64,000 bases of DNA from an uncultured Chloroflexia bacterium. GTDB lineage: Bacteria; Chloroflexota; Limnocylindria; QHBO01. How positions within the stretch are numbered: the stretch's first letter is position 1; every line of letters begins with the position of its first letter. Of the stretch, positions 13,177 to 55,306 are shown in pieces. The position numbers were made by a program, and so were the translations under genes. Location of the stretch: assembly GCA_963773405.1 (NCBI GenBank), contig CAVZAQ010000013.1, positions 19,758 through 83,757 on the forward strand, read 5' to 3'. The notes under the pieces were generated by a model. It did not search any database. It was not told the DNA's origin and worked only from the letters and a program-made list of their open reading frames with translations.

Positions 13177-13179
13177 AGG

Positions 13180-14930: not shown

Positions 14931-15013
14931 CCCGGTCTGATCGGGAACTTTCATACACAGGGTCTCAGATCCCGCGGATGCTCTTCCTAATTCTCCGCTC
15001 GGCTGCGAAGCAG

Positions 15014-15328: not shown

Positions 15329-15343
15329 CAGTCGCGCTCCTAC

Positions 15344-25509: not shown

Positions 25510-28500
25510 TCAACTGCACCCGCTCGTCGCGCCGCAGTTGATGCACTTGTAGCAGGACCCGTTGCGAACCATGATCGAGCCGCATTCGCTGCACGACGGC
25601 GAGTCCGCGGTGTCGAAGATCACCGTGGGCTGACCAACCGAAAGCCGCTCGTCCCGCGCCTGCGCCACGATCTTCAGCCCATCCAGCAGCCCGTTCTCGT
25701 GCGCCTCTTCCGCCACCTCCCCGGTATCTGGGCCGGCTGGCGCCTCTCCGGCCTGAACCGGGGCTGTGGTCGCGTCAACTTCAGATCGTCTCCCCGTCCG
25801 GAGCCGCAGCGGAACCGGATGGGCGGCGGCGGGCACGCGGCCGCTGAGACGAGGCTCGAGGCGGACGGGGCGTCCTCGCCGCCTCCCCAACTGCCACTGG
25901 CGTGGCTCCGCGAGGGACATCTGCCGATTGACCACGCCCACCCCATCCTGCTCATCCCGCGACAGGAACTTGCTGGCGAGGTACCGGAAGATGTAGTCGA
26001 CGATGGACTTGGCCATGGGCACGTCCTGGTTCCAGGTGAACCCGGCCGGCTCGAAGCGCATGTGGCTGAACTTGTTGACCAGGTCCTTCAGCGGCACCCC
26101 GTACTGGAGGGCGACGCTCACCGCGATGGCGAACGCCTCCATCATCCCGGCGACGGTGCTCCCCTCCTTGGAGATCCGGATGAAGAGCTCGCCCGGCTGC
26201 CCGTCGTCGTACAGGCCCACCGTGAGATACCCCTCGTGCCCGGCCACGTTGAACTTGTGGGTGAACGCGCTGCGCTCATCGGGCAGCCGCCGGCGGATGG
26301 GCCGGTAGACGGTGGTGACCGATGCGGCCGTATCGGTCTTGGCTGCGTCGCCGCCTTCCTTCTTGGTGTTCAGGGGCTGGCTGCGCTTGGAGTTGTCCCG
26401 ATAGACCGCGATGGCCTTGAGGCCCAGCTTCCAGCCGTCGATGTAGACCTGGGCGATCTCCGCCGCGGTCGACGCCTCCGGCATGTTCACCGTCTTGCTG
26501 ATGGCGCCACTGATGAACGGCTGGACCGCGGCCATCATCTTGAGGTGCCCGTTGTAGTGGATGGAGCGGGTGCCGTTGGCCGGCTTGAAGGCGCAGTCGA
26601 AGACGTCCAGATGCTCGTCGCGCAGGTGCGGCGCGCCCTCGATGGTCTCGTGCTCGTCGATGTAGCCGACGATCTCCTCGACCTGGGTCGCGGAGTAGCC
26701 GAGCCGCTTGAGCGCGTGCTGGACCGTGTGGTTCACGATCTTCAGGTAGCCGCCGCCCACCAGGCGCTTGTACTTGATGAGGGCGATATCGGGCTCAACC
26801 CCGGTGGTGTCGCAGTCCATCATGAAGGCGATGGTGCCGGTGGGCGCCAGCACGGACAGCTGCCCATTGCGGAAGCCGGTCTTCTCGCCCAGGGCCACCA
26901 CCTCGTCCCACGCGGTCAGCGTGGCATCCAGCAGGTCCTCGGGGACCAGCTTCGATCGATGCGGTAGGCCGCGTCGCGGTGCATCCCCATGACCTTGAGG
27001 TACGGCTCGCGGTTGACCGCGTAGCCCGCAAACGGCCCGCCCTGGTCGCGGGAGATGCGCGCGCTCTGGAGCGCCGCCTCCGCCTGCATCAGGGCGGTGA
27101 CCGCCGCCGAGTAGGAGCGACCGGCATCGGAGTCATAGGCCAGCCCGCGGTTCATGAGCAGGGCGCCAAGGTTGGCGTAGCCCAGGCCGATGGGGCGGAA
27201 GTCGCGGGAGTTCTCCCCGATCCGCGGCGTGGGGTAGCTCGCGTTGTCGACGATGATCTCCTGCGCGGTGAACACGATCCGCACCGCGTGGCGGTAGTCC
27301 TCGATCGCGAACTCCCCGTCGTCGCTCACGAACTTCATGAGGTTCAGGCTCGCGAGGTTGCAGGCCGAGTCGTCGAGGTACATGTACTCGCTGCACGGGT
27401 TGCTGGCGTTGATGGGGCTCGTGTTGGCGGACGTGTGCCAGCGGTTCACGTTGTCGTGGTACTGGATCCCCGGGTCGCCGCAGACCCAGGCCGCCTCCGC
27501 CATCTTGTTGAGGAGGTATCGGGCCTTGACGGTCTGCATGGGCTCGCCGGTCTTCACCGCGTGGGTGGTCCAGTCGCCGTCGCGCTCGACCGCGTCCATG
27601 AACGCGTCGGTCACGCGCACGGAGTTGTTCGAGTTCTGGAAGAAGACCGATTCGTAGGCGGCGCCGCCGTTGAAGTTGCCGTCATAGCCGGCGTCGATCA
27701 GCGCCCAGGCCTTCTTCTCCTCGACCAGCTTGCAGTCGATGAACTCCTCGACATCGGGGTGGTCGATGTTGAGGATCACCATCTTCGCCGCGCGCCGGGT
27801 CTTGCCGCCGGACTTGATCACGCCGGCGAAGGCGTCGAAGCCCTTCATGAAGCTGACCGGGCCCGATGCGGAGCCGCCGCCCTTGAGCCCCTCGTGCTTG
27901 GACCGCAGGGTGGAGAGGTTGGAGCCGGTGCCGGAGCCGAACTTGAAGAGCATCCCCTCCGTCTTGGCCAGGGTCAGGATGGACTCCATGGTGTCTTCGA
28001 CGGAGTTGATGAAGCACGCGGAGCACTGGGGCTTGACGTCGATCCCCACGTTGAACCAGACCGGGGAGTTGAAGGAGGCACGCTGCTTGAGGAGGATGTC
28101 CTTGAGCTCGTCGCGGAACGCTGGCGGCGTCGCCATCGGTCGCGAAGTAGGCGTCCTTGATGCCCCAGTCGGCGATGGTGTCGGCCACCCGGTCGATCAT
28201 CTGCTTGACGGAGTGCTCGCGCTCCGGGGTGCCCATGGTGCCGCGGAAGTACTTGGAGGCGACCACGTTGGTGGCCAGGGCCGACCAGCTCTTGGGGAAC
28301 TCCAGGTTCTTCTGCTCGAAGACGACCTTGCCGTGCTCGTTGGTGATGGCGGCTTCGCGCTTGTCCCACTCGACGGTGTCGTAGGGGTGGACCCCCTCGC
28401 GGGTGAAGCGCCGCTCGATGGCCAGGCCCTTCCAGGTGCGGGCCGCGCCCGGCTCAAGCTGTGAGTAGCCCGTCTTGCGCTTCGCAACCCCCGTTGCGCC

Positions 28501-31339: not shown

Positions 31340-31385
31340 CCGCATAGATGCTTAGAACATATAGCATACGAAGGCCTATAGATGG
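31340..31385. promoter_or_regulatory. AT-rich segment with imperfect inverted repeats (CATATAG...CTATAGATG) upstream of the arsR-like regulator and sulfur operon
   Basis: atagatgcttagaacatatagcatacgaaggcctatagatgg is about 40% GC in a 70% GC genome. Confidence 0.3.
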
Positions 31386-31585
31386 ACCAGGCATCGAAAA
31401 GGACTGCCGGAACGGCAAGGGAGGCGGGTTGACATGCAGAGCATCACGCGGCGACGGACCAGGTACCGCCGCCTCTTCTCATCGCCGGATTGTCTGTGCT
31501 GGCGGCTGGGCTCGCTCGCCCTGCGGCTGTCATCGCGGCGCTGAGTGACTGGACCGTTGGAACACCGAAGCCGGAGGAGCTGACC

Positions 31586-31975
31586 ATGCTGCGAGCATTG
31601 GAAGACATCTACGCCATCCAGGCGTCAATCCTCCGCACCCTCGGAAGCCCCCGCCGGCTGGAGATCATCCACGTCCTGGGCACAGGGCCGACGGAGGTTC
31701 ACCGCATCGCGGAGGAGCTGGGTGTCAGCCAGCCCACCGTCAGCCAGCACCTGGCCGCCCTCCGGGGCGCCGGCCTGGTCGACGCCGTCCGGGACGGCAG
31801 GAACGTCCGCTACGCGCTCACCGATCCGGGGATCCTGCAGGCCTGCGACCTGATGCGCGACGTCCTCTTCCGGCGTCTCGGCCGTCTCTCCAGCCTGGCC
31901 GCCACATTCGACACACCCCAGCGCCCTCGCCGGCGCACAGAGCGCGCACGCGCGCTGGAGGTTGCACACCGATGA
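31586..31975 (+). CDS. ArsR/SmtB family transcriptional regulator (sHdrR-like position)
   Basis: ATG with GGAGGA RBS. ...ILRTLGSPRRLEIIHVLGTGPTEVHRIAEELGVSQPTVSQHLAALRGAGLVDAVRDGRNVRYAL: ArsR winged helix. Confidence 0.75.
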   Translation: MLRALEDIYAIQASILRTLGSPRRLEIIHVLGTGPTEVHRIAEELGVSQPTVSQHLAALRGAGLVDAVRDGRNVRYALTDPGILQACDLMRDVLFRRLGRLSSLAATFDTPQRPRRRTERARALEVAHR

Positions 31976-32385
31976 GCGAATCCCTCTCCATCGTCCTCAG
32001 CTCGGGGACGGATGACAAGCTCCAATCCGCGGCGATCATGGCCGCGGGCGCCGCTGCCCTTGGGCAGAAGGTCAACATCCTGCTCCAGTTCTGGGCGCTC
32101 GACGCCTTCCGGTCCGATCGCATCGGCGCGGACCACGGCCTGATGCCGGAGGCGGGCGAGGCCGGCGCGGCCGCCGTCCGCGATCACACCCCACACGGGA
32201 GGCTCGAGTGGCAGGAGACCCTGCGCCAGGCGAAGGAGCTTGGCGAGGTGGAGATCCACGCCTGCACGAACTCCCTTGAGCTGCTTGGCATCGATGCCAT
32301 GGACCTCGACCCGATCGTGGACGGGGCCGGCGGCATCGCAACGTTCTTCCTGAAGGCCGAAGACGGCCCCATCGTCTTCATCTAA
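31972..32385 (+). CDS. DsrE/DsrF-like family sulfur-relay protein
   Basis: LSIVLSSGTDDKLQSAAIMAAGAAALGQKVNILLQFWALDAF...VEIHACTNSLELLGID: DsrE/YchN fold with conserved Cys. Confidence 0.6.
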   Translation: MSESLSIVLSSGTDDKLQSAAIMAAGAAALGQKVNILLQFWALDAFRSDRIGADHGLMPEAGEAGAAAVRDHTPHGRLEWQETLRQAKELGEVEIHACTNSLELLGIDAMDLDPIVDGAGGIATFFLKAEDGPIVFI

Positions 32386-32400
32386 GGAGTCGCACGAAAA

Positions 32401-32769
32401 ATGGCAGACCACGAGAAGCTCGTCTTCATGGTTACCCACGGACCCGAGCATCCGGAGCACGCGACGATCCCGTTCGTCATGGCCTGCGCGGCCCTGGCGT
32501 CCGATGTCGAAGTGGTCATGGGTTTCCAGGCTGATGGCGTCTGCATCGTCCGCGAGGGCGAGGCGGAGCACGTCGAGGCGAAGGCCTTCCCGCCCCTCAC
32601 CAAGCTCATCAACGACTTCCGCGAGCTGGGCGGAACCATGCTCGTCTGCGGGCCCTGCCTGAAGGGTCGCGAGATCGCAGAGACCGATCTTGTCGTCGGC
32701 GCCGAAGTGGTGGCCGCCGGACGGTTCATCGCCGAGATCACGTCGGCAACCAACGCCCTCGTCTACTAA
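32401..32769 (+). CDS. DsrE/DsrF-like family sulfur-relay protein
   Basis: KLVFMVTHGPEHPEHATIPFVMACAALASDVEVVMGFQADGV...MLVCGPCLKGREIA: DsrE-family with active-site Cys. Confidence 0.65.
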   Translation: MADHEKLVFMVTHGPEHPEHATIPFVMACAALASDVEVVMGFQADGVCIVREGEAEHVEAKAFPPLTKLINDFRELGGTMLVCGPCLKGREIAETDLVVGAEVVAAGRFIAEITSATNALVY

Positions 32770-32818
32770 CCCATCAACCATCCCGATCCGCCGTGCGGAT
32801 CGAATCAAAGGAGCCGAC

Positions 32819-33082
32819 ATGGACACCACCACCATCCAGCCGCTCGAAGAGATCACCGCCGCCAAGGTCATCGACGCCCGCGGCGCCGCCTGCCCGGGGC
32901 CCCTGCTGGAGGCCAAGAAGGGCATGGGCACCGTCGCCATCGGCGAGGTGATCGAGATCTGGTCCACCGATCCGGTGACCAAGACCGACATCGGCGCATG
33001 GTCCGGCAAGGTCGGGCACGAGTACCTGGGCGCCGTGCAGGACGCCGGCTACGACCGCGTCTTCGTGCGACGGATGAAGTAG
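32819..33082 (+). CDS. tusA: TusA-like sulfurtransferase
   Basis: From internal Met MDTTTIQPLEEITAAKVIDARGAACPGPLLEAKKGM...: CPxP active-site motif. Confidence 0.75.
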   Translation: MDTTTIQPLEEITAAKVIDARGAACPGPLLEAKKGMGTVAIGEVIEIWSTDPVTKTDIGAWSGKVGHEYLGAVQDAGYDRVFVRRMK

Positions 33083-33151
33083 GCGAACCGCCTGGATCAC
33101 GGGGCGCGGCTGCCGCGCCCCGGATCCGCCACCAAGGGAGTCGATGAACAG

Positions 33152-33601
33152 ATGAGCGCGCAGATAGTCGCCGAGGCTCCGGTGGCCCACACGGGCCCAC
33201 CGAGGATCCTGGTCTTCTCCACGAACAACATCAGCGACCCGGGGATCGACCTGGCGGGCAGCGCCCACATGCACTACTCCCCGGGCGTCAAGGTGATCAA
33301 CCTGCCGTGCACCAGCGGCATCCGCCCGTCGTGGATCCTCCACGCCCTGGAGACCGGCTTCGACGGCGTGTTCGTGGCCTCCGACGGCGACGAGTGCGCC
33401 TACCTGCCCGACTGCGGCAAGCGCTCCTCGCGGATCCTTGCCGAGGCCCAGGCGACGATGAAGGAGCGCGGCATCGACCCGAACCGGGTGCGCCTGGCCG
33501 CGATCTGCTCCGTCTGCTCGGAGCCGTTCACCAAGCACGTCACCCAGTTCTCAACCGCCCTGGCCGAGCTTGCGCCCGGCGACCACGAGGTGACCAGATG
33601 A
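33152..33601 (+). CDS. MvhD/FlpD-like (methyl-viologen-reducing hydrogenase delta subunit family) iron-sulfur protein
   Basis: ILVFSTNNISDPGIDLAGSAHMHYSPGVKVINLPCTSGIRPSWILHALETGFDGVFVASDGDECAYLPDCG: MvhD signature. Confidence 0.7.
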   Translation: MSAQIVAEAPVAHTGPPRILVFSTNNISDPGIDLAGSAHMHYSPGVKVINLPCTSGIRPSWILHALETGFDGVFVASDGDECAYLPDCGKRSSRILAEAQATMKERGIDPNRVRLAAICSVCSEPFTKHVTQFSTALAELAPGDHEVTR

Positions 33602-36382
33602 CCGAAGCGTGCGCGGTTCCGACCGCGAACAAGGTCGACTACGACGTCATGGTCGTGGGCAGCGGCATCGGCGGCATGGAGTCCGCCCTGAAGCTGGGCG
33701 ACATGGGCTACAAGGTCCTGCTGGTCGAGAAGGAAGCCAGTGTCGGCGGCAAGATGATCCTGCTGTCGAAGGTCTTCCCCACCCTCGACTGCGCCAGCTG
33801 CATCTCGACCCCCAAGATGGCGGCGACCATTCATCACCCGAACATCACCGCCCTGACCTACGCGCAGGTGGACGGCATCCGCAAGTCCGCCGACGGGCGC
33901 TTCCACGCTTCCGTGACCAAGAAGGCCCGGTTCGTGGACATCGACACCTGCACCGGCTGCCAGAAGTGCGAGACCGCCTGCACCGTCGCCATTCCCGACC
34001 AGTTCAACGCCGACCTGGTGGCGCGCCGCGCGGCGTACATCGCGTTCCCGCAGGCCGTGCCCAAGAAGGCGGTCATCGACCGCCAGGGAAGCTCGCCGTG
34101 CTCGTTCGCGTGCCCGGCCGGCATCCAGGCCCACGGCTACGTCTCCCTGATCCGATCAGGTGAGTACGAGAAGGCCTACGAGCTGGTGCTCGACGCCACG
34201 CCGCTGGTGGGCACCCTGGGACGCGCCTGCTACGCCCCGTGCGAGGGCGAATGCACCCGCGGATCGCTGGAGGGGACGCTCCCCATCCGGCGCCTCAAGC
34301 GCTTCATCTCCGATCAGCATGACGAGGCCGGCACAGGGCCGGGAATCGAGATCGCGCCGCCGAACGGCAAGCGTGTGGCCGTCGTGGGCTCCGGGCCCAC
34401 GGGTCTCACCGCCGCATGGCAGCTGGCCCGCCTGGGCTACGCGGTCCGGATCCTGGAGTCCGCGCCCGTCGCGGGCGGCTTCCTGCGGTTGGGCATCCCG
34501 TCCTACCGACTGCCCGAGTCCGTGGTGGAACGCGACATTGCCGAACCTGACCGATGTCGGCGTCGAGATCGTGACCGACACGGTCGTTCGTGACGTGACC
34601 GCACTCAAGGCCGAGGGCTACGACGCCGTGCTCGTCGCCACCGGAACCCACAAGTCCCTGGGCCTGGGCGTACCCGGCGAGGACCGCCTGGGCGTCCTGG
34701 GCGGCACCGACTTCCTGCGCAAGGTCAAGCTGGGGACGCCCATGGACCTCGCCGGCCGGACCGTCGTGGTCGTGGGCGGCGGCAACGTGGCCATGGACGC
34801 CGCACGGACCGCGCGCCGCCTGGGCGCCGAGTCCGTCACCGTCGCCTACCGGCGCGGACGGCACGAGATGCCCGCCAACCACGTTGAGGCCACCGACACC
34901 GAGGCCGAGGGCGTGCAGTTCGCCTTCCAGGTCGCCCCGGCCGAGGTGACCGGGGACGCGAACGGTGCGGTCAACGGACTGCGCTGCACGCGGATGCAGC
35001 TGGGCGAGCCGGATGCCTCCGGGCGTCGTCGCCCCGAGCCCATTCAGGGCAGCGAGCACGTCATCCCCTGCGACCTGGTGATCGCCGCCATCGGCATGAA
35101 GCCGGAGCTCTCCGCCTTTGGCGGTCAGCTGGCCACCAGCGACAACGGCCGCCTGCTGGCGGACACGGTGACCCGCCGCACGGAGCTCGAGTACGTGTTC
35201 GCCGCGGGCGACGCGGTGCACGGGCCCACCGACATCACCCGCGCCGTGGGCGAGGGACGCCGCGCGGCGCACATGATCGACCGCTGGCTCACCGGCGGGA
35301 CCATGGACGGCTTCGACGACCGGCTCCCGGTCGTGGACAAGCAGGCGGTCCTGGCGCGCCAGAAGGAATACAGCCTGCGACCGCCGACCCCGGACGCCAC
35401 GACCCTGGTCGCAGCGCCCACCGACTTCAGCGAGGTCGAGGCGGGGCTCACCGAGGCCGAGGCGCGTGCCGCGGCCGGGCGGTGCATCGACTGCGCGGTC
35501 TGCAGTGAATGCGGCGAGTGCGTGGCGGCCTGCCCGGTTGACGGCTGCATTGACCTCCACGCGCGCGACGAGACCTTCGAGGCCGATATCGGCGCCGTCG
35601 TGGTCTCGACCGGCTTCAAGCTCTTCCCCGCCGACCTCAAGCCGGAGTACGGCTTTGGTCGCTTCACCAACGTCATCACCGGGATGCAGATGGACCGCCT
35701 GCTGGCGCCCACCCGTCCCTTCAACACGATCCTGCGCCCGGGCGACGGCAAGGTCCCGGAGCGGATCGCCTACATCCTGTGCACCGGCTCGCGTGACGAG
35801 ACGGTGGGCAACCCCCTCTGCTCGCGGTTCTGCTGCATGTACTCCATCAAGCAGAACCAGCTCCTGATGGGCGCCCTGCCGCTGGCCGACGTGACCGTCC
35901 ACTACATGGACATCCGGGCCCCGGGCAAGCGCTACGACGAGTTCTACGAGCAGGCGAAGGCCATGGGCGCCACGTACGTCAAGGGCCGTGTCGCCGATGT
36001 CAGCGAGAAGCCGAACGGCGACCTCGTCCTCAAGTACGAGGACATCGAGAACGGCGGCAAGATCGTGGAGGCGGAGTACGACCTGGTCGTGCTGGCCGTG
36101 GGCGTCCAGCCCAACCACGATGCGGAGCAGCTGTTCGAGGTGGGCGAGCTGGGGCTCGACGAGTGGAGCTACGTCGGCGAGCCGGAGGAGGACCTCAACC
36201 CGGGCCAGACCAACATCCCCGGGGTGTTCGTGGCCGGGGCGGCCTCGGGAGCCAAGGACATCGCGGACTCGATCGTCCACGCGGGGGCCGCTGCGGCCCA
36301 GGTGGCCGCTCACCTCGAGCAGACGAAGGTCGAAGCCCCCGAGACGGAAGCACTCGAGACGATTGCGATGGTGACGGCATGA
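33598..36382 (+). CDS. hdrA: Large HdrA-like flavoprotein with inserted GltD-like NAD(P)H-binding domain (~928 aa), interrupted by one frameshift near 34540
   Basis: ORF 33307..34593 from MTEACAVP (VDYDVMVVGSGIGGMESALKLGDMGYKVLLVEKEASVGGKM...DCASCISTPKM; GltD-like VAVVGSGPTGLTAAWQLARLGYAVRILE) continues in ORF 34160..36382 (NLTDVGVEIVTDT...CIDCAVCSECGECVAACPVDGCI...ILCTGSRDETVGNPLCSRFCCMYSIKQNQ: HdrA 4Fe-4S and C-terminal signatures). Confidence 0.7.
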
Positions 36383-38127
36383 CCACCAAGAAGAAGAAGG
36401 ACGAGGGGCGCCGGATAGGCGTCTACGTCTGCCACTGCGGCGGCAACATCAGTGACTACGTCGACGTCGACAAGGTCATCAAGGGGATCGAGGACGACGG
36501 CGACGTCGTCGTGGCCAAGACCGCCATGTTCGCCTGCTCGGACGCCACGCAGGGCGAGATGATCGCGGACATCGAGGCCCAGAAGCTCGACGGCCTGGTG
36601 GTCGCCAGCTGCTCGCCCAAGCTCCACACCTACACGTTCCGCGGCGTCGCCTCGCGCGCGGGCCTGAACCCCTACGAGTACACGCAGGTCAACATCCGCG
36701 AGCAGTGCTCGTGGGTGCACACCGACGACGAAGCGGCGGCCACCGAGAAGGCGACGGACCTGGTCCGGGCCGGCATCGCGCGGACGCGCCTGACGACCCC
36801 GCTGGAGCCCATGGTGGTCGACACGCTGCCGCACACCCTGGTGATCGGCGCCGGGATCGCCGGCCTGCGAGCCGCCATCGGCCTCGCCGACATCGGCCTC
36901 AAGGTCACCGTCGTGGAGCGCGAGCTGGAGGTGGGCGGCTGGGTCCGCGACTTCGGCCCCATGTACCCCCACGGTCGCAAGGGCAGCGAGCTGATCGCCG
37001 AGCTGGTGGCCGAGGTCCGCAAGCGACCAGCCATCACAGTACTGACCGGAGCCGCAGTGGTCGGCAAGGCCGGCAGCTTCGGCAACTACCAGGTCAGCGT
37101 CCGGGTGGGCGACCCGGGCTCCGCCACGATCGAGGTCGCGGTGGGAACCATCATCACCGCCACCGGGTTCGACGCCTACGAGCCGGAGGCCGGAGAGTTC
37201 GGCTACGGGATCGACGGCGTGGTCACCCTCCCGCAGTTCAAGGCCATGGTCGACGGCGCCACCGGTCCGCTCACACAGAACGGGCGCCCGGTTCGCAGCG
37301 TTGCCTACGTCTACTGCGTGGGAAGCCGGAACACGAACGGCTGCTCGAACGCCTACTGCTCGCGCTTCTGCTGCGCGGCAACGGTCCAGACGGCTGTCGA
37401 CGTGGCCGGCCTGGACCCGACGGTTCGCCAGTTCCACCTGTACCGGGACATGCGGACCTACGGGAAGTTCGAGCCGATCTACGAGGAGGCTCGCAAGACG
37501 GGCTCGGTCTTCATCAAGTTCGACAACGACGCGCCGCCCGCCGTGGAGCGCAGCGATGCCGGCGAGATGACCGTGACCGTGCGCGACCTGCTCACCGAGA
37601 ACACGGAGCTGGCCATCCCGGTCGACCTCGTGGTCCTGGTGACCGGCATGGTCCCGCGCGAGAACTCCGAGCTGGTGGACGTGCTCAAGCTGCCCGCCGG
37701 CACCGACGGCTTCTTCAACGAGATCCATCCCAAGCTCCGCCCGGTCGAGACCGTGGTGGACGGGGTGCTGATCGCCGGCACCTGCCAGGGACCCAAGACC
37801 TCGGCCGAGAGCGTTGCCTCCGGTCTGGCAGCGGTGACACAGAGCGCCGCGGTCCTGAAGAAGGGCTACACGGAGCTGGACCCGCTGGTCGCCATCGTGA
37901 GCCCGGAGGCCTGCACCGCCTGTGGCGACTGCCTCACCGCCTGTCCATACGACGCGATCTCCATGACCGAGGAGGGTGACCGGCACTTCGCCGTGATCAG
38001 CCCCACCGGCTGCAAGGGCTGCGGCGGCTGCGTGCCGATCTGCCCCGAGAACGCGATCGACCTGCTCGGCTACACCGACGGCCAGATCAGCGCCATGATC
38101 GAGAGCCTCGTGGAGGTACCCGCCTGA
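36379..38127 (+). CDS. hdrA: HdrA-like flavoprotein (QmoA-like)
   Basis: From MTTKKKKDEGRRIGVYVCHCGGNISDYVD (HdrA N-terminal Cys cluster). FAD motif LVIGAGIAGLRAAIGLADIGLKVTVVERE; YVYCVGSRNTNGCSNAYCSRFCC; C-terminal ferredoxin CTACGDCLTACP...CKGCGGCVPICP. ATGA overlap with the upstream gene. Confidence 0.75.
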   Translation: MTTKKKKDEGRRIGVYVCHCGGNISDYVDVDKVIKGIEDDGDVVVAKTAMFACSDATQGEMIADIEAQKLDGLVVASCSPKLHTYTFRGVASRAGLNPYEYTQVNIREQCSWVHTDDEAAATEKATDLVRAGIARTRLTTPLEPMVVDTLPHTLVIGAGIAGLRAAIGLADIGLKVTVVERELEVGGWVRDFGPMYPHGRKGSELIAELVAEVRKRPAITVLTGAAVVGKAGSFGNYQVSVRVGDPGSATIEVAVGTIITATGFDAYEPEAGEFGYGIDGVVTLPQFKAMVDGATGPLTQNGRPVRSVAYVYCVGSRNTNGCSNAYCSRFCCAATVQTAVDVAGLDPTVRQFHLYRDMRTYGKFEPIYEEARKTGSVFIKFDNDAPPAVERSDAGEMTVTVRDLLTENTELAIPVDLVVLVTGMVPRENSELVDVLKLPAGTDGFFNEIHPKLRPVETVVDGVLIAGTCQGPKTSAESVASGLAAVTQSAAVLKKGYTELDPLVAIVSPEACTACGDCLTACPYDAISMTEEGDRHFAVISPTGCKGCGGCVPICPENAIDLLGYTDGQISAMIESLVEVPA

Positions 38128-38402
38128 TGACCACGACCGCAACGCGCACCGGGCCCGCGCCGAACCCGAACCGGGACATCCGCGAGGTGATCCGCGAGGA
38201 GCCGGTGATGCGCGCCCGGATCCTGGCCGCCCTCGACGACGGGCCGCTCACGGTGCCGCAGATCGCCACCGCCATCAACGCCCCGACCCACGAGGTCGTC
38301 TACTGGGTGATGGGCATGCGTCGCTTCGGCTGGCTCGCAGAGGTCAAGGGCAGCGAAGACGACGGCTACTTCACCTACGAGCCGACCGGAAGGACCTCGT
38401 AA
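38127..38402 (+). CDS. Small winged-helix-like hypothetical protein
   Basis: 91 aa; RARILAALDDGPLTVPQIATAINAPTHEVVYWVMGMRRFGWL suggests a wHTH; overlaps neighbours by 1-4 nt. Confidence 0.4.
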   Translation: MTTTATRTGPAPNPNRDIREVIREEPVMRARILAALDDGPLTVPQIATAINAPTHEVVYWVMGMRRFGWLAEVKGSEDDGYFTYEPTGRTS

Positions 38403-39607
38403 TGACCGCAACGACCACCCCGGTGCCGGCCACCAGGATCGACCTGGGGCTCTATCCCGACATCAGGCGCTTCGGCGCGGCCGATGTCTCCGCCTGCTTC
38501 AGCTGCGGCACATGCACCGCCAGCTGTCCGCTCTCCGAGACCGATACCGCCTTCCCGCGCCGCGTGATCCGCTTCGCGCAGCTGGGCATGAAGGATGCGC
38601 TCCTGTCGTCGAAGGAGCTGTGGACCTGCTACGCCTGCGGCGAGTGCAGCGAGAGCTGCCCCATGTCCGCGGAGCCGTCCGAGTTCATGGCCGCCGCGCG
38701 CCGCTATGCGATCGCCAGCTACGACCACACGGGGCTCGCTCGCACCATGTACACCATGCCGGTGATCGGCACCGGGATCGCCCTGATCCTGGCCGCCGTC
38801 TTCGCGGCGTTCATGTACGCGTCGCACGGCCCGCAGGACGCCGCGACCCTGGCGCTCTTCGGGTTCATCCCCAACGAGCTGATCCACAGCATGGGCCTGA
38901 TCGTGATGGCCGTCGTGTTCCTGGCCGGCCTGGCCGGGATCGTGACCATGGGCCGCCGCCTGGCCCGGGTGGAGGGCGTGACGCTGCGCTCGACGCTTGG
39001 CAGCCGCGCGGCGCTGGCCCGCAGCGCTCGGGCGCTGTGGAGCGCCATCGGCATGGAGTCGCTGGGACAGGCTCGCTACCGCACGGACTGCGACGTGGAG
39101 AACGAGTCCGCCGTGGCGTGGTATCGGCGCCGCTGGTTCATCCACGCCATGACCGTCTGGGGCTTCCTTGGCCTGCTGGGCGCAACGATCGCCGACTACG
39201 GCCTGGAGATCATTGGCTGGAAGGCCACGGGCACCCCGGTGCCGATGTGGTACCCGGTCCGCCTGCTTGGCACCGTGGCGGGGATCGCGCTGATCTACGG
39301 GACGACCATGCTGATCATGGACCGCGTGCGGAAGTCGCACCGCTCGGTGCGGACCTCCTCGCCGGCGGACTGGACGCTGCTGGTCCTGCTCTGGATCACC
39401 GGGGTCACCGGCTTCGGGATCGAGCTGGCACTGTACCTGCCGCAGGCGCCGGCCTGGGGCTACTGGTTCTTCCTCTTCCACGTGGCGATTGCCATGGAGC
39501 TGGTCCTGCTGGCCCCGTTCATGAAGCTGGCCCACGCGGTCTACCGGCCGGTGGCGCTCTTCTTCTTCGCCCTGCGCAAGGAGGGCGCCGGATCGCCCGC
39601 GCAGTAA
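38402..39607 (+). CDS. Fusion of HdrC-like 2x[4Fe-4S] ferredoxin domain and NarI/HdrE-like membrane di-heme cytochrome b domain (QmoC-like)
   Basis: CFSCGTCTASCP and CYACGECSESCP cluster motifs, followed by 5-6 TM helices with conserved His (IHSMGL, FIHAMTVWGF, LFHVAIAMEL). Confidence 0.7.
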   Translation: MTATTTPVPATRIDLGLYPDIRRFGAADVSACFSCGTCTASCPLSETDTAFPRRVIRFAQLGMKDALLSSKELWTCYACGECSESCPMSAEPSEFMAAARRYAIASYDHTGLARTMYTMPVIGTGIALILAAVFAAFMYASHGPQDAATLALFGFIPNELIHSMGLIVMAVVFLAGLAGIVTMGRRLARVEGVTLRSTLGSRAALARSARALWSAIGMESLGQARYRTDCDVENESAVAWYRRRWFIHAMTVWGFLGLLGATIADYGLEIIGWKATGTPVPMWYPVRLLGTVAGIALIYGTTMLIMDRVRKSHRSVRTSSPADWTLLVLLWITGVTGFGIELALYLPQAPAWGYWFFLFHVAIAMELVLLAPFMKLAHAVYRPVALFFFALRKEGAGSPAQ

Positions 39608-39985: not shown

Positions 39986-40429
39986 ATGACTAAGCGTTCG
40001 CCCGGGCGCGACCCGATCGCATCCGGCCGGGACAAGCGCGGCACCCCCATCCACCATGGGTGGGCGACGCTCGGTGGCCGCCGCCGCTGGATGGAGCCCT
40101 TCATGCTGGTCCTCCTGGCGGAGGGATCGGCGCACGGGTACGCGCTGGTGGGGCAGCTGGAGGAGATGGGCGTGGCCACCGGCTCGCAGCTCGACTTCGG
40201 GCAGGTCTACCGCACGCTGCGCGACCTCGAGCGGGACGGCCTGGTGAGCTCCACCTGGTCGACCGAGCCGGCCGGGCCACAGCGTCGCGAGTACGAGCTG
40301 ACCGATGCCGGCTACGCCACCCTGGACGAATGGGCCGCGGTCATGCGCGAGCGCGCACGGCTGATGGCCGAGTTCGACGGGCGCTACCTGTCGGCTGTCG
40401 CCCGGCCCCCAAGGCGCTCCCGGAGCTAG
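39986..40429 (+). CDS. PadR family transcriptional regulator
   Basis: ...MEPFMLVLLAEGSAHGYALVGQLEEMGVATGSQLDFGQVYRTLRDLERDGLVSSTW...YELTDAG: PadR signature. Confidence 0.7.
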   Translation: MTKRSPGRDPIASGRDKRGTPIHHGWATLGGRRRWMEPFMLVLLAEGSAHGYALVGQLEEMGVATGSQLDFGQVYRTLRDLERDGLVSSTWSTEPAGPQRREYELTDAGYATLDEWAAVMRERARLMAEFDGRYLSAVARPPRRSRS

Positions 40430-40917
40430 ATCGGCTGAGCCATGGCGTGGTCCAGGGACTGCGCCAGCGCGTCGCGCTCCTCGGGCGAGAGGCTCCCCTC
40501 CAGCACGGCGAGGTAGTGCTCCTCCTCCGCGAGGTGCACCTTGTACATGGCGTGCAGCCGGTAGAGCGCGCGGCGCAGGCCCATGGCCTCGCCGGGGTCG
40601 AGGGTGCAGGCGATGACATTGGGCCGGTAGTCACCCAGCGTCCCGATCAGGCGCCGCAGCTCGCGGTGCTCGTGGCGCATGGGGATCATGGAGTGCCGGT
40701 TCTGAAGAAGCCGCTCCAGCTCGGGGTAGATGCTGCTCTCGACCGCGTCGATGTGCGGCAGCATCTGGTCGTGGATGAAGCGGTACTCGGCCTCGAAGCG
40801 CGCGGCGAACGCCTCCGGGCGGACCGTGTCGATGGTCTCCGCAAGGGCGGGCAGGGCGTCGATGTGGGGCATCATCAGCTCATGGTGATGCTGGGTCGTC
40901 TCGGGCAGGGACCGCAT
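40426..40917 (-). CDS. Hemerythrin HHE cation-binding domain protein
   Basis: H-rich helical motifs (MMPHIDALP..., HDQMLPHIDAVESSIYPELE, HEHRELRRLIG, LHAMYKVHLAEEEHY). Confidence 0.6.
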   Translation of the reverse strand: MRSLPETTQHHHELMMPHIDALPALAETIDTVRPEAFAARFEAEYRFIHDQMLPHIDAVESSIYPELERLLQNRHSMIPMRHEHRELRRLIGTLGDYRPNVIACTLDPGEAMGLRRALYRLHAMYKVHLAEEEHYLAVLEGSLSPEERDALAQSLDHAMAQPI

Positions 40918-41092: not shown

Positions 41093-41584
41093 TCAGAGGG
41101 GCTCTGCGATGGCGTGGTCGATGGCACGCGCCAGGGTCGAGCGCTCCTCCGGCGAGAGGTTGTGCTCCAGCACGCCGATGTAGTGCTCCTCCTCCGCGAG
41201 GTGCACCTTCAGGATCGCGTAGAGCCGGTACAGGACCCGGCGCAGCCCGGTCGCCTCCGCTGCGCTCAGACGACCGCCGGCCACCTGCTCGCGGTACTTG
41301 CCGAGCGAGCCGATGAGGCGGTGGATCTGCCGATGCTCGTGGCGCATGGGCAGCATGGAGTGGCGGTTCTGCATCAGCCGCTCGAGCTCGGGGTAGATGG
41401 TCTCCTCGATCCGCTCCACGTGCGGCACCAGCTCATCGACGATGAACGTGTACTCCGCCTCGAACAGCGGCGCATAGGCGCTCGTGGCACCCTCGGCGAC
41501 CATCTCGGCCAGCCTCCCCAGCGCGTCCACGTGGGGCAGGATCTGCTCGTGACGCTGGTGCTCGGTCTCGGGAAGCGACAGCAT
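41093..41584 (-). CDS. Hemerythrin HHE cation-binding domain protein (paralog)
   Basis: From internal Met MLSLPETEHQRHEQILPHVDALGRLAEMV...; ~55% identical to 40426..40917. Confidence 0.6.
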   Translation of the reverse strand: MLSLPETEHQRHEQILPHVDALGRLAEMVAEGATSAYAPLFEAEYTFIVDELVPHVERIEETIYPELERLMQNRHSMLPMRHEHRQIHRLIGSLGKYREQVAGGRLSAAEATGLRRVLYRLYAILKVHLAEEEHYIGVLEHNLSPEERSTLARAIDHAIAEPL

Positions 41585-41737
41585 GGCAATGCTCCTACAG
41601 CTACGGCGCGATCCGGGACGTTGGGCGACCTTCCCCACCCGCTGCACTCCGGGCTCCAAGGCTGCGCGCGCGCCTGCCGCCTCGCCAGTGCCACCCGGAC
41701 CGCCGCCGGGGGTCGCACCGGGCCACCACCGGCATTG

Positions 41738-41915
41738 CGCGGCGGATGTTCGGATGGTTGGAACGTAACGTCGGGGAACGCGGCCGCGAGGGCCGCCGGC
41801 AGCCAGCGCCCGACGCAATGTTCGGGTGGCTGTTACCGGGCATGCCCCCGGGTCGTGGAGTGCGGCCCGTCGGCGGTCCCCGGCGACGTTATGTTCGAGC
41901 AGGCGTAACCCAGGA
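41738..41915. repeat. Composite intergenic repeat element, copy E2 (ggATGTTCGgatggtTGGAACGTAACGTCGggg; caATGTTCGggtggcTGTTACcggg; inverted CGACGTTAtGTTCGAgcaggcGTAAC)
   Basis: Read directly. Confidence 0.55.
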
Positions 41916-45091: not shown

Positions 45092-46296
45092 ATGAGCAGC
45101 ACCGCGGCCCTCAAGCACGCGCGCAGACCTTCTCCGCCGGCAGATCCTGATCGACGGGCACAACGACCTGCCCTGGGCGATCCGCGAACGCGGAGGGCGC
45201 GCCGGGCGACATCGGCGCCTACGAGCTCGTCCGGGAGCGGCGCCAGCCGGGGATCGCCCGGGGCCACACGGATTTCGCGCGCGCCCGACGGGGCGGGCTG
45301 GGCGGCCAGTTCTGGAGCGTCTACGTCCCCGGCGAGGGCGGGATGGACGCCCGTCCGGCGCGCACCCAGCTGGAGCAGCTGGACCTGGCGCGGCGGCTCA
45401 TCGACCGCTACCCGCGACACCTTCGCTTCGCGTGGTCAGCGCGCGAGGTCCGCGAGGCGTTCGCCGCGGGGCGCATCGCCAGCCTGCTGGGTATGGAGGG
45501 CGGGCACGTCATCGAGAACTCGCTGGGCGCCCTGCGTGCGTTCGCCGACCTGGGCGCCCGCTACATGACCCTGACCCACAACAGGGCCAACGACTGGGCG
45601 GACTCCGCCACCGATGCGCCGCGCCACGACGGCCTCTCCGACTTCGGCCGCGAGGTGGTCCGGGAGATGAACCGGATCGGGATGCTGGTGGATCTCTCCC
45701 ACGTGGCGCCGTCGACGATGCGCGACGCGCTCGACACCTCCGAGGCGCCGGTGATCTTCTCCCACTCCTCGGCGCGGGCCCTGTGCGACGTCCCGCGCAA
45801 TGTCCCCGACGAGATCCTGCGCCGGGTGCCGGCCAACGGCGGGGTGGTGATGATCACCTTCGTCGCCGGCTTCGTCTCGCCCGATGCCGCCGCGATCCTG
45901 GTGCCGGCCATCGCGGAAGTCGGCGAGCGGCTGGCCGGCGTCACGGATCCAGCCGAGCGGCGCGCCATCCAGCGCGAGGTCCTCGAGGGGCTGGAGGTGC
46001 CCATCCCGCCGCTCTCGGTGGTGGCCGACCACGTCGAGCACGTGGTGGCGGTGGCGGGGATGGAGCACGTGGGGCTGGGTGGCGACTTCGACGGCACGGT
46101 CTTCCTCACCCGCGGGCTCGAGGATGTCTCCGGCTACCCGAACCTGTTCGCAGAGCTGCTGTCGCGCGGATGGTCCGATGCCGATCTCGCCCGCCTGGCG
46201 GGCGGCAACGTCCTGCGCGTGATGCGCGAGGCGGAGGGTGTCGCGGCGCGCCTGCGGCGCGCCGGGCGCGAGGCGTCGCTGGCCGCCATCGGCTGA
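45092..46296 (+). pseudogene. Membrane dipeptidase (peptidase family M19), N-terminal 40 codons spread over 3 frames (2 indels)
   Basis: ORF 45343..46296: GHVIENSLGALRAFADLGARYMTLTHNRANDWADSA...VDLSHVAPSTMRDALD...VIFSHSSARALCDVPRNVPDEIL...HVGLGGDFDG: M19 motifs. Upstream, MSSTAALKHAR (frame 1), LLRRQILIDGHNDLPWAIRERGG (frame 2) and GDIGAYELVRERRQPGIARGHTDFARARRGGLGGQFWSVYVP (frame 3) form the conserved N-terminus. Confidence 0.65.
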
Positions 46297-52161: not shown

Positions 52162-55100
52162 TCAGTCCAGCCTCGCGAGCCTCCTCCCAGCGACCCTGGG
52201 CGATGTGCAGCTCGCCCAGCAGGGACGAGAGGCCTGCGGTGGCCTGCGCGCTGTCCAGGACGACCGGCCGGCTCGTGCAGGCAGCCGCAGCTGCGTCTCC
52301 GCCTCATCCGGGTCGCCGCGGTAGATCCGCCTGCGAATGAGCTCCGTCTCGAACCAGGTCGCGTAGAAGCCGGAGGCATCGGCCCGCTCAACCTCCATTT
52401 CGGGCAGCCACGCGTCCCAATCACCCAGGTCGAACGACGTGCCCAGCGCGACACCGATCGCCTGCTGCATCCGGGTGCGCAGCCCGAACCGCTCGGCGAT
52501 CTCATGCTGCTCTCCAACCAGGGTCAGCGCCGAGCGGAGGCTGATCCCACCAATCAGGATCTGCAGGTTGTTGCGGGCGCGGAGCGCGTTCATGGGGTTG
52601 CCGGCCAGGTCCGCCACGCTGATGCAGCCGCGAAGGGTCACCTCCGCCTCCGTGATGACGCCGACGTTGAGGAGCGCGGTCCCCTTGGTGATCAGGATGT
52701 CGACGAGGTCGGTCTGGGTGAGGACGGCCTGCTGGGCGAGAACGCGGTCGCACCATTCGATCGAGCGGCGATCGCCCGAAATCATCAGCGCCCGTGCCAG
52801 CTCCGCCTGGGCTCGCGCCACCTCCCGCGATGACGGGAGGCCCTCTGCGTCGGCGAGCGCCGCCTCGAGGATCTGGATCGCGGCGCGGTCACCGTGCTCC
52901 GTGAGCTTGGCGGTGGCCTGCAGCGTGCGCGCGCGCAGGATCCCGACGCGGTCGCCGAGTCGGCGGGAGATCTGCTCCGCCTCGTGGCCGTGGGCGATTG
53001 CCGCCTCGATGCGGCCCGAATGCATCGCCGCATTGCCGGCGCGCTCCTGGAGTGCTGCCTGCTCGGCCGGATCCGCGGTCACCTCGAGCGCCTGCTCCAG
53101 GTACTGCTCCGCGCCCACGAACGAGTGCAGCGCCATGGCCCGATCCGCGGCCGCGCGCAGGACGATCCGCGCCTGCGCCGCGAGCGCATCGGCTTCCGCT
53201 CCGTCGGCGGTGGCGCGGTAGGCCGCGAGGTAGTGGCTGGCCAGGACGCCGGCGATCTCGTCCTCGCCCAGCGCCTCGTAGAAGCGCGCCGCGGCCACGT
53301 GCTTCGCACGACGGTCCCGCTTCGCGAGCGACTGGTAGGCGACCTCGCGGACCACGCCCTGGACGAACCGGTGCTGGCCGCGCTCAGGCGATCGGGGGTC
53401 CGCGTCCAGGGCCAGGATCTCGTGCCGCACCAAACCCGTCAGGCGCTCCTCCAGGCTGTGGCCATCGAGACCGCTCACCGCCGTAAGCGCATCCAGGCTG
53501 AAGGAGAGGCCCAGCACGGACGCATCCGTGACGAGGGACCGCTCCTCGGGATCAAGCGAGTCGAGGCGGGCGGCGATCAGCGCGTGCAGCGACTCGGGAA
53601 CCACCAGCTCCGGGAGATCCTGCACCAGCGTGTATCGGCCGTCCTGCTCGTGGAGGATGCCGCGGTCCAGGAGCATTCGCAGCGTCTCCACCGCGTAAAG
53701 CGGCACGCCCTCCGCTCGCCCCACGATGGCGCGCAGCGCCGGCTCCGGCATCCCAGGCACCAGGCCGGTGAGCAGGAGGCGCATGTCGTCGTCGGAGAGG
53801 GGCTCGAGGTGGATGGAGGTCGCCGCGCGGACGCCCTGCCCCCACCCGGGGCGCCGCTCGAGGAGCTCGGGGCGTGCCTCAGCCAGGACGAAGATCGGCG
53901 AGCTGCGGGCCCAGGTGAGCAGATGTTCCACGAAGTCGAGCAGACCCTGGTCCGCCCACTGCAGGTCCCAGAAGACGAGGAGCACCGTTCCCTGTTCCGC
54001 CATCCGCTCGAAGAAGGTGCGCCAGGCCGCGAAGAGCTCTTCGCGGGACTCCTCCGGGAGATCGTCCAGGCCCAGCAGACCGGCCAGGCGGGGCTCGATC
54101 CAGCGCCGCTCGGCCGGATCCGTCACGAACTGCTCCACGGTCGCGCGCAGCTGCTCTCGTGCGACCGCCGGGTCGTCCGACTCCGCGATCCCCGCGCGGC
54201 CGCGCACCATCTCGGCCAGCGCCCAGTAGCTGATCCCCTCGCCGTACGACGGGGAGCGGCCCTCGTGGAACCAGATGTTCTCCACGACCCCGTCGAGGTA
54301 CTTCTCGAGCTCCCAGCCGAGCCGGCTCTTGCCGATGCCTGCCTGGCCGATGATCGTCACCAGCCGCGGCTTGCCCTCGCGGGCGGTGGCGTGGAACTGC
54401 TCCTTGAGCGCACGCAGCTCCTCGTCTCGCCCGACGAACGGCGGCTCAAGCTGGGCCGCGCGCCCGGATCCGCCGCGCCGGGCGACGACCGCGGTCGCGC
54501 GCCAGACGGGGACGGGGGCGGCCTTTCCCTTGAGCTCGCGATCACCCGCCTCCTCGAAGGCGATGGCGTTCGATGCGGCGCGCATGGTCGCCTCGCCCAC
54601 CAGGACGTTCCCCGGCTGCGCCGCCGACTGGATGCGAGACGCGGTGTTGACCAGGTCGCCGGCGACCATGCCCTGGTTCGTGGCGCCAATGGTGACCGCC
54701 GCCTCCCCGGTCAGGACCCCTGCCCGGGCCGCCAGGTGCTCGTCGCCGATCTCCATGGCTCCGACGGCGGCGACCAGCTCCAGGGCGGTGCGGACCGCGC
54801 GCTCCGCGTCGTCCTCGTGCGCGGTGGGTGTGCCCCAGACCGCCATCACCGCGTCCCCGATGAACTTCTCGATGATGCCGCCGTGGCGTTCGACGATCTC
54901 CTGGGCCGTCTCGAAGTAGCGGCTCAGCAGGTCGCGCGTCTCCTCCGCGTCGTGATGCTCCGAGACGGTGGTGAACCCCACCAGGTCGGTGAACATGACC
55001 GAGACGAGGCGACGCTCCGCGACGGCGGCGGTCGGCTGTCCCTCGCCCGTGGCTGATCCCGGGGTGGCTGAGGGCTCAGCAGGGGCAGATGCTCCCGACA

Positions 55101-55248: not shown

Positions 55249-55306
55249 TTGGCTCCGCGTGCTCAAGGATCTGAGCACGGAGTATGACGGGTGTTGTCCC
55301 TTGCGC

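Follow-up and report, generated by a model that had tools for sequence, protein, structure and literature searches.

Canonical qmoABC genes stand in a sat-aprBA-qmoABC cluster in many sulfate reducers and sulfur oxidisers, and how Qmo works, with its HdrA-like subunits and a hypothetical 'third partner', has been a question since the complex was first described. According to the confurcation model that is favoured for Qmo, a third partner of low potential takes part, with NADH dehydrogenase among the candidates; confurcation has never been shown, since electron transfer from menaquinol to adenosine 5'-phosphosulfate (APS) could not be reconstituted. Type II Qmo proteins resemble typical HdrA and occur with or without Dsr or Apr, and establishing their role needs experiments (Neukirchen et al.). 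In Metallosphaera cuprina, dsrE3A-dsrE2B-tusA is flanked on one side by a dihydrolipoamide dehydrogenase gene and on the other by an Hdr-like (sHdr) cluster, and DsrE3A and TusA carry thiosulfonate groups that are moved by the module in vitro (Liu et al.). Fusions of HdrA with GltD ('HdrL') encoded beside mvhD were described in 2009 in Desulfobacterium autotrophicum. Here we describe a nine-gene operon on a 64,000-nucleotide stretch of DNA from an uncultured Chloroflexia bacterium (GenBank assembly GCA_963773405.1, contig CAVZAQ010000013.1, positions 19,758 to 83,757; hereafter the window), in which a TusA/DsrE carrier trio precedes an MvhD-HdrL-HdrA-QmoC redox module. The operon is best read as neither canonical Qmo nor sHdr, but as a type-II-like Qmo with a built-in HdrL-type NAD(P)H arm. 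We further propose, as a tentative reading to which we give slightly less than an even chance, that its products form a membrane-anchored Qmo-type complex whose redox partner would be a TusA-centred sulfur relay and not APS reductase.

A tightly packed operon of sulfur carriers and HdrA-family subunits

Open reading frames (ORFs) and domain searches placed nine plus-strand genes between the arsR start at 31586 and the stop of the QmoC-like gene at 39607, in the order arsR, dsrE2B-like, dsrE (CxxC), tusA, mvhD, HdrL-type hdrA, second hdrA, winged-helix gene and QmoC-like gene. Because the G+C content of the window is 65-75%, raw ORF lists were rich in spurious frames, and the real genes were chosen by third-position GC together with domain searches against Pfam and NCBIfam; the starts of tusA and of the second hdrA were refined to 32819 and 36379, respectively. 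Neighbouring genes frequently overlap: the arsR stop codon overlaps the dsrE2 start, the mvhD stop overlaps the start of the large hdrA (ATGA), the large hdrA runs into the second one, and the small winged-helix gene shares one base with the second hdrA and one with qmoC. The remaining neighbours are separated by gaps of 15-69 nt. The operon is real and tightly packed. Dozens of independent genomes show this gene order again, and the arrangement goes far beyond chance. The strong domain matches and the overlapping genes bear out the gene order and boundaries given in a preliminary description of this DNA, and the domain matches agree with its account of two HdrA paralogues, a separate MvhD, an HdrC::HdrE-type membrane subunit and a sulfur-carrier trio.

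Relatives were collected by a pattern scan of one-genome-per-species contigs, using a pattern derived from an alignment of QmoC-like proteins, and 359 stretches were confirmed to encode a relative. Conservation was counted in the 64 related loci whose sequence reaches 7.2 kb or more upstream of qmoC. In every one of these, tusA, mvhD, both hdrA genes and qmoC were present in the same order, with tusA immediately upstream of mvhD (64/64). All nine genes were detected in 37 of the 64 loci; dsrE was missing from 15, the dsrE2-like gene from nine, arsR from six and the small gene from three, although some of these misses may reflect search sensitivity. The genes of the complex are inseparable from tusA.

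The mvhD gene (33152-33601) encodes a 149-residue MvhD-like [2Fe-2S] subunit with five conserved cysteines (Pfam FlpD, 7.3e-28). It is followed by a large hdrA of HdrL type (33598-36382), whose product is 927 residues long after correction of a frameshift and matches the NCBIfam models PRK12771 (2.6e-85) and HdrA2 (1.1e-83). Compared with structures in the PDB, residues 165-642 match Stn/Nfn-type subunits while residues 630-913 match positions 288-572 of HdrA, and the protein scores 327 bits to methanogen HdrA as against 142 bits to sHdrA. The insert is a complete NfnB/GltD-type module for NAD(P)H, flavin adenine dinucleotide (FAD) and 2x[4Fe-4S], situated inside the inserted-ferredoxin region of HdrA, and among solved structures it comes nearest to the NfnB-like portions of Stn/Nfn-type transhydrogenase subunits; the PRK12771 and Stn/Nfn-type matches support the NAD(P)H-binding insertion that had been suggested for this protein. 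Its approximately 24 conserved cysteines include a DCxxC motif (Cys65/68) after the FAD fold, a ferredoxin-type motif and the five cysteines of the Fer4_20 domain of NfnB type; behind the insert there follow a double ferredoxin motif and CX12CX3CC, which is typical of HdrA. In itself the large HdrA is not unusual, as HdrL proteins have been described since 2009 and the HdrA::GltD fusion architecture belongs to a very large, widespread family.

The gene for the large HdrA is not a single intact ORF in the window. The first frame, from 33598 to 34545, covers the FAD-binding N-terminus, the four-cysteine motif and the Fer4_20 domain of GltD/NfnB, and the coding sequence continues in the next frame to 36382, with one extra base at 34540-34543. 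Intact orthologues are 901-923 residues long. At the frameshift site the window reads ATT-GCCG-AAC, where a 98%-identical relative reads ATT-CAG-AAC and other relatives read ATT-GCC-AAC. The nearest relatives are metagenome-assembled genomes (MAGs), whose contig names suggest a long-read assembler. Single frameshifts also split at least two other genes of the window, encoding a class II ribonucleotide reductase (25510-28136, minus strand) and an M19 dipeptidase (at about 45126-45182). Given the hybrid look of two alleles, at least two other broken genes and the long-read-type MAGs, we treated the frameshift as an assembly (consensus) error, which is what it looks like. A programmed frameshift or a pseudogene was rejected as first choice on the grounds of the hybrid-allele site and the other broken genes.

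The second HdrA (36379-38127, plus strand, 582 residues; NCBIfam HdrA2, 1.6e-142) begins with a four-cysteine domain and ends with a 2x[4Fe-4S] ferredoxin domain; between them are an FAD domain and the cluster motif CX13CX3CC (Cys313/327/331/332), while the inserted ferredoxin domain and the DCxxC motif are both lacking. In the PDB it matched the HdrA of 5ODC at 7.3e-108 (365 bits), as compared with 2.7e-29 (106 bits) for sHdrA in 6TJR. The adjoining small gene (38127-38402) encodes a 91-residue protein with an 81-residue conserved core and a faint helix-turn-helix similarity. It has 569 homologues, with 30 invariant columns among 43 aligned sequences, and its AlphaFold 2 model (mean pLDDT, a per-residue confidence score, of 85) has the topology H-H-H-H-beta-beta. 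The start and stop overlaps with hdrA2 and qmoC are also found in relatives, and these overlaps with both neighbours, together with the strong conservation, suggest that the protein is probably a subunit of the complex rather than a regulator. Fold matches were confined to generic MarR/ArsR-type winged helices at E values of about 2e-3, so that a DsrD-like or other specific fold was not adopted. We took the label 'DprA/Smf Rossmann fold protein', given by the Joint Genome Institute (JGI), to be an annotation artefact of the winged-helix domain.

The last gene (38402-39607) encodes a QmoC-like membrane subunit of 401 residues, in which an HdrC-like 2x[4Fe-4S] domain is fused to a six-helix di-haem cytochrome-b domain (Pfam Fer4_8 and Nitrate_red_gam). 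The protein aligned with positions 2-360 of the 360-position NCBIfam qmoC model at 201.3 bits (2.9e-59), below the equivalog cutoff of 300. Eight cysteines and four histidines (His162/248/360/378) are invariant, there are six hydrophobic segments, and the N-terminus is closest to HdrC in the PDB. With its HdrC-like di-cluster domain and six helices bearing four invariant histidines, the subunit appears equipped as a di-haem cytochrome b and should exchange electrons with menaquinone.

Upstream of mvhD stand three sulfur-carrier genes. The DsrE2B-like protein (31972-32385, plus strand, 137 residues; Pfam DrsE_2, 4.4e-14) is soluble, with no transmembrane segment, and carries a cysteine, Cys98, that is present in 100% of orthologues; its best PDB match was 2QS7 (3.9e-21). 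The DsrE-family protein (32401-32769, plus strand, 122 residues; Pfam DsrE, 7.1e-18) carries Cys83-Gly-Pro-Cys86, with both cysteines again present in 100% of orthologues, and its best PDB match was 3MC3 (9e-07). TusA (32819-33082, plus strand, 87 residues; Pfam TusA, 1.6e-17) carries its active-site Cys25 in Cys-Pro-Gly-Pro, the Cys-Pro-X-Pro motif of the family; the surrounding motif DARGAACPGPLLEAKK is invariant, with ACPGP in 67/67 orthologues. For DsrE2B and DsrE3A of M. cuprina, Liu et al. name 2QS7 and 3MC3 as the equivalents in Sulfolobus solfataricus, and through these matches the trio corresponds to the module that flanks sHdr clusters in Sulfolobales; the preliminary description had named the DsrE-TusA pair a hallmark of sHdr loci. 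The window DsrE belongs to the DsrE fold family; its cysteines are spaced Cys-X2-Cys, and not Cys-X7-Cys as in DsrE3A, where the first cysteine is the DsrE active-site residue (Liu et al.).

Comparison with Qmo, sHdr and HdrL systems

Like QmoABC, the operon encodes two HdrA-like FAD/iron-sulfur (Fe-S) subunits together with a QmoC in which an HdrC-like Fe-S domain is fused to an HdrE-like di-haem-b membrane domain. An MvhD module is also present in both, and both families include an alternative version with HdrBC or HdrD in place of QmoC. The end-to-end alignment of the QmoC model, the two HdrAs and MvhD uphold the likeness to Qmo that had been drawn for this locus. Unlike in QmoABC, MvhD is encoded by a separate gene upstream of the HdrAs instead of forming a domain of QmoB, one HdrA contains an NfnB/GltD NAD(P)H module, there is an extra winged-helix subunit, and TusA/DsrE and ArsR are linked. 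Among the matches listed for both HdrAs and QmoC, no PDB entry was named Qmo; similarly, no Qmo-specific A or B model was among the NCBIfam matches listed, and the HdrA-like proteins hit methanogen HdrA models below cutoff.

The window also differs from QmoABC in having no linked aprBA or sat. The window ORFs put through the Pfam scan contained no apr, sat, soe or lbpA gene and no genes for the maturation of LbpA, in agreement with the lack of an AprAB partner observed earlier; outside the operon these ORFs encode unrelated functions, namely LigD, adenylate cyclases, a Schlafen-like helicase, a transposase, a ribonucleotide reductase, an acyl-CoA synthetase-type enzyme and others. Neither Apr nor Sat was among the Pfam domains listed for the related loci inspected, and across 85 loci no neighbour family other than PadR and hemerythrin was found in more than about 22. 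These results bear on the possibility that the genes encode an ordinary type II QmoABC, serving an APS reductase or a sulfite-forming or sulfite-consuming enzyme elsewhere in the genome, with TusA and DsrE feeding that pathway. Such a role would suit both the full-length match to the QmoC model and the name QmoC that JGI gives to some orthologues, and type II Qmo has been reported in organisms with and without Apr/Dsr. We nonetheless consider it very unlikely, given that the linkage characteristic of sat-aprBA-qmoABC is missing, that the qmoC score is 201 bits against a cutoff of 300, that MvhD is separate and that the large subunit contains an NAD(P)H module. In addition, Limnocylindria, the class to which the host belongs (see below), are regarded as aerobic heterotrophs.

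Two natural variants of the operon were found among the relatives. At least six loci carry a version without the NAD(P)H insert (L058, L084 and L085, and probably L030, L032, L048, L050 and L059), hereafter version B, which encodes a QmoA-sized HdrA of 460 residues, an HdrA of 680-700 residues, the small protein and QmoC. The 460-residue HdrA retains an intact two-cluster ferredoxin insert, and the QmoC orthologue scored 203.4 bits against the NCBIfam qmoC model. In one of these loci, L084, both dsrE genes are missing inside the operon, and the surroundings encode rhodaneses, TauE, DUF302, glutaredoxin and a second ArsR-DsrE2-TusA-DsrE2 set.

The second variant is a sister operon with a G+C content of 53% (L088, positions 7192-15581; also in L089 and one JGI contig). 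Its order is DsrE2, ArsR, TusA, MvhD, HdrL (901-903 residues), HdrA (675-681 residues), the small protein (84 residues), an HdrD-like protein and a DsrE with CxxC. The HdrD-like protein (380-382 residues) is soluble and contains a 4Fe-4S di-cluster domain and two CCG motifs, as in HdrD/TfrB. Every component is homologous to that of the window, with identities of 46% for HdrL, 44% for HdrA, 48% for TusA, 49% for DsrE, 39% for ArsR and 33% for the small protein, and the N-terminus of the HdrD-like protein is 36% identical to that of QmoC. The sister operon differs in its slightly other gene order, its G+C content and the soluble CCG protein in the QmoC slot. Since QmoC holds exactly the slot of that protein, it replaces the CCG protein and does not supplement it; the HdrC-like domain is thus shared by the two, and is joined in one case to a CCG domain and in the other to a membrane cytochrome. 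The same swap, between QmoABC and QmoAB-HdrBC/HdrD, has already been described (Neukirchen et al.). Lipoate synthase and ligase genes downstream in L088 were considered as a hint of sHdr and set aside, as they lie about 4.5 kb away and look like ordinary lipA/lplA.

With respect to sHdr, the DsrE2B-like/DsrE3-like/TusA trio stands beside HdrA-family genes as in the M. cuprina cluster dsrE3A-dsrE2B-tusA-hdrC1B1AhyphdrC2B2, and an ArsR-type regulator is nearby, as in some sHdr clusters. Unlike sHdr, the operon has no HdrB1/B2, separate HdrC, LbpA or Etf, the DsrE has a Cys-X2-Cys motif, ArsR has one conserved cysteine, and both HdrAs are of methanogen type and not the 349-residue sHdrA. No ORF with coding character in the window contained a CCG motif, and none of the window ORFs covered by the Pfam scan encodes an HdrB, which confirms the earlier statement that the window lacks HdrB. 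An hdrB gene just outside would have completed a canonical Hdr complex; within 10 kb on each side, however, no ORF in any of the 85 related loci had a CCG-domain signature.

A canonical Hdr or sHdr system would require HdrB (CCG) and lipoate-binding proteins to be encoded elsewhere, with TusA and DsrE presenting a heterodisulfide-like species to the CCG site. The HdrD-like CCG subunit in the QmoC position of the sister operon is in keeping with such a system, and Chloroflexota such as Thermomicrobium roseum do carry sHdr clusters, in that species a type II cluster, with tusA and dsrE. Yet the CCG signature is lacking in the window and around the 85 loci, QmoC fills the slot of the CCG protein, and both HdrAs resemble methanogen-type HdrA far more than sHdrA, and of all the explanations considered here this appears to us the least probable.

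The pairing of a GltD/NfnB-bearing large HdrA with an adjacent mvhD agrees with the HdrL-MvhD pairs of D. autotrophicum and other anaerobes, making the large HdrA an HdrL. Unlike the locus in the window, two other HdrL loci inspected carry HdrBC, formate dehydrogenase or hydrogenase genes, and the D. autotrophicum HdrL occurs with dsrABC; in the window, HdrL stands together with sulfur carriers, QmoC and another HdrA, and the lineage is one that is regarded as aerobic. EtfABCX/FixABCX and FlxABCD-HdrABC are functional analogues only, in which a flavin splits or combines NADH electrons between a quinone or disulfide and a low-potential carrier. The Etf subunits are unrelated to those of the operon, Flx-Hdr is soluble with an HdrB catalytic site, and there are no sulfur carriers in either. 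Open-access papers and bioRxiv yielded no description of the TusA/DsrE + MvhD-HdrL-HdrA-QmoC operon, of its insert-less version or of the HdrD-ending sister, in line with the preliminary description, whose authoring model knew of no such arrangement. The same sources held nothing linking Limnocylindria to Qmo, HdrA or TusA.

Proposed electron transfer and alternative explanations

The putative complex would comprise MvhD, the HdrL-type large HdrA, the second HdrA, the winged-helix subunit and QmoC. In the alignments every predicted cofactor-binding residue is conserved, and on this basis the complex has what is needed for NAD(P)H (in the NfnB-type module), three flavins, roughly twelve Fe-S clusters and, in the subunit that faces the quinone, two haems. 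Two of its parts are homologous to flavoprotein modules known to bifurcate electrons, namely HdrA and NfnB. We propose that the HdrA flavin would couple three arms: NAD(P)(H) by way of the insert, the quinone pool by way of QmoC, and a cytoplasmic sulfur arm. Just as HdrC connects HdrA with HdrB, the HdrC-like domain of QmoC would connect an HdrA flavin with menaquinone. In methanogen HdrA, a ferredoxin-like insert is thought to form a low-potential exit, and because the NfnB-type module is spliced in where methanogen HdrA has that insert, we placed NAD(P) on the low-potential branch. The cytoplasmic arm, made up of MvhD together with the second HdrA's ferredoxin domain, might exchange electrons with cysteine-bound sulfur on TusA/DsrE, in the form of a persulfide, disulfide or thiosulfonate. 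TusA is constant in all three versions of the operon, and for this reason cysteine-bound sulfur on TusA was taken as the partner of the third arm; TusA would always take part in the relay, and the DsrE2B-like protein and the CxxC-DsrE would usually pass the sulfur on.

The midpoint potentials of menaquinone and NAD(P) are about -75 mV and -320 mV, with a mean of about -200 mV, and those of thiol/persulfide/sulfide couples are about -200 to -270 mV. Since the mean lies close to these couples, a three-way bifurcation or confurcation would run near equilibrium and be nearly reversible. We lean only slightly towards the oxidative direction, from sulfide-level carrier sulfur to menaquinone and NAD(P)+, because the insert-less version B retains the carriers and QmoC and is explained more simply in this way. 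In the reductive alternative, NAD(P)H and menaquinol would together reduce carrier-bound sulfur, following the confurcation model favoured for Qmo. The most specific form of the proposal, a respiratory enzyme that oxidises TusA-held sulfane or thiol sulfur and whose HdrA flavin bifurcates electrons to menaquinone and, through the NfnB-like arm, to NAD(P)+, is in our judgement unlikely as a whole. If true, it would mean that NAD(P)H can be made straight from sulfide-level sulfur without HdrB, lipoate or Dsr, and that a Qmo complex holds the hypothetical 'third partner' inside its own subunit, in abundant aerobic soil and freshwater Chloroflexota.

Several observations weigh against a TusA-centred relay as the partner of the complex. 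Chief among them, none of the subunits contains a site recognised as catalytic in sulfur chemistry, be it a CCG domain, AprA or a lipoate protein. With DsrE missing from 15/64 and the DsrE2-like protein from 9/64 loci, only TusA can be an obligatory partner, and that the carriers would physically touch the complex is suggested by gene linkage only. An AprAB or HdrB partner may be encoded far from the operon, as our scan covered the window and the 10-kb flanks of the related loci. Finally, the ArsR regulator is without the two-cysteine signature of known sulfane-sulfur sensors, and its matches assign it to no sensor subfamily.

In a rather improbable alternative, two independent modules share one transcript and no electrons pass between the complex and the carriers. 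ArsR, DsrE and TusA would then serve in the buffering or trafficking of sulfane sulfur, while the complex, in the manner of Fix/EtfABCX, would pass electrons from NAD(P)H to menaquinone and, by bifurcation, to a carrier of low potential, for instance ferredoxin. A free-standing ArsR-DsrE2-TusA-DsrE2 cluster without Hdr genes does exist (L084), some of the loci do without DsrE or DsrE2, HdrL-type proteins also act outside sulfur metabolism, alongside formate dehydrogenase or hydrogenase, and the complex has no sulfur-active catalytic domain. Two independent modules would, however, leave the position of tusA directly before mvhD in 64/64 loci to be explained, along with its retention in the sister operon, where other components are 33-49% identical, and the insert-less version would have no built-in electron donor besides quinol or the carriers.

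The proposal that the complex exchanges electrons with TusA-bound sulfur can be approached through the natural variants, which isolate the variables: a core with an NAD(P)H site, a core without it, and a core with a CCG subunit in place of the quinone subunit. All three are tied to TusA, which is small and easily produced, so that the question of coupling is testable in vitro. Should the system connect the respiratory chain or NAD(P)H with reduced sulfur, a lineage that is not counted in the sulfur cycle would acquire a sulfur-handling trait.

Regulator, neighbouring genes and host

The arsR-family gene (31586-31975, plus strand) encodes a protein of 129 residues (Pfam HTH_5, 4.9e-16) that scored 79.7 bits against the NCBIfam model HTH_metalloreg (cutoff 55), clearing the general ArsR/SmtB threshold. 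The specific models BigR (48 bits, cutoff 155) and CmtR (54 bits, cutoff 150) were not reached, and PDB neighbours were metal sensors mixed with BigR, all at E values of about 1e-10 to 1e-8. Cys87, in the C-terminal helix, is present in 100% of orthologues and is retained in the sister operon (as ...DACEM...); no other cysteine is conserved, and none precedes the helix-turn-helix. By comparison, SqrR, BigR, SoxR and sHdrR have two conserved cysteines (Cys50 and Cys116 in Hyphomicrobium denitrificans sHdrR) that form an intraprotomer tetrasulfide, and many ArsR genes near shdr clusters encode proteins without these cysteines, which may act differently (PMC12423496). By the two-cysteine signature of that family, the regulator is not of sHdrR/SqrR type as far as its residues indicate, and it is therefore not the sHdrR-type hallmark of a sulfur-oxidising locus for which it had been taken.

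Upstream of arsR, a conserved AT-rich element spans 31342-31385 (plus strand) within GC-rich intergenic surroundings. It consists of three blocks, GCATAGATG (31342-31350), ACATATA (31358-31364) and CCTATAGATGG (31375-31385), which show no variation when the window is aligned with five relatives, whereas the sequence on either side diverges. Both GCATAGATG and CCTATAGATGG contain ATAGATG, giving a direct repeat about 33 nt apart; the element has no inverted repeat or palindrome and no match to the sigma-70 consensus, and a terminator search of the promoter region returned nothing usable. This element is a candidate promoter or ArsR operator, and the ArsR protein would probably repress the operon from it.

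Between the element and arsR lies a 36-codon ORF (MQSITRRRTRYRRLFSSPDCLCWRLGSLALRLSSRR; 31434-31544, plus strand), preceded by GGAGG. Its Arg-rich product holds a CxC within PDCLCW and is 68-86% identical in five related loci (L003, L005, L006, L007 and L008), where DNA changes are mostly synonymous; it was not found in more distant loci. The ORF could possibly encode a leader peptide or a small protein. Searches of the whole window with Rfam at gathering thresholds and with a tRNA scan found nothing.

Downstream of the operon are a PadR-family regulator (40103-40429, plus strand; Pfam PadR, 3.4e-17), whose boundaries were set by tblastn with the orthologue from related locus L001, and two minus-strand genes for hemerythrin-domain proteins (40426-40917 and 41093-41818), the two copies scoring 1e-07 and 2.1e-09 against Pfam Hemerythrin. 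In the 76 loci used for downstream counts, PadR was found within 4.5 kb in 54 and hemerythrin, as one or two genes, in 63. Neither follows the sister operon. These neighbours may indicate a link to the sensing of oxygen, nitric oxide or iron, or to the repair of Fe-S clusters.

Labels of relatives were judged on the best 80 of the 359 stretches, and almost all of these were MAGs labelled Chloroflexia, Chloroflexota or Candidatus Limnocylindria/Limnocylindrales. On the strength of these labels, the host is a member of the Chloroflexota class Limnocylindria (Ellin6529), a dominant, uncultivated soil Chloroflexota lineage, and not an actinobacterium as had been thought probable. The labels 'Nanopelagicales' and 'Steroidobacteraceae' on two short-contig matches were attributed to probable mis-binning and were not counted as a wider distribution. 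The QmoC-like protein has more than 1,600 clusters in the protein database, those listed being 66-93% identical. Where public names are given to these genes they are 'ferredoxin', 'FAD-dependent oxidoreductase' or similarly generic, apart from the orthologues called 'QmoC' by JGI.

Elsewhere in the window, a Schlafen-group-3-like DNA/RNA helicase domain was matched twice, by ORFs at 10392-12527 and 13177-13692. An IS4/IS5-type transposase (14079-14915, minus strand) adjoins these ORFs, which may represent a duplicated or disrupted gene beside a mobile element. Two adenylate/guanylate cyclase-domain proteins are encoded on the minus strand, at 5839-7296 and 52162-55335; one has a GAF domain, and the other, of about 1057 residues, combines zinc ribbons with an AAA_16 ATPase domain. 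The cyclase-domain gene at 52162-55335 is syntenic with L001.

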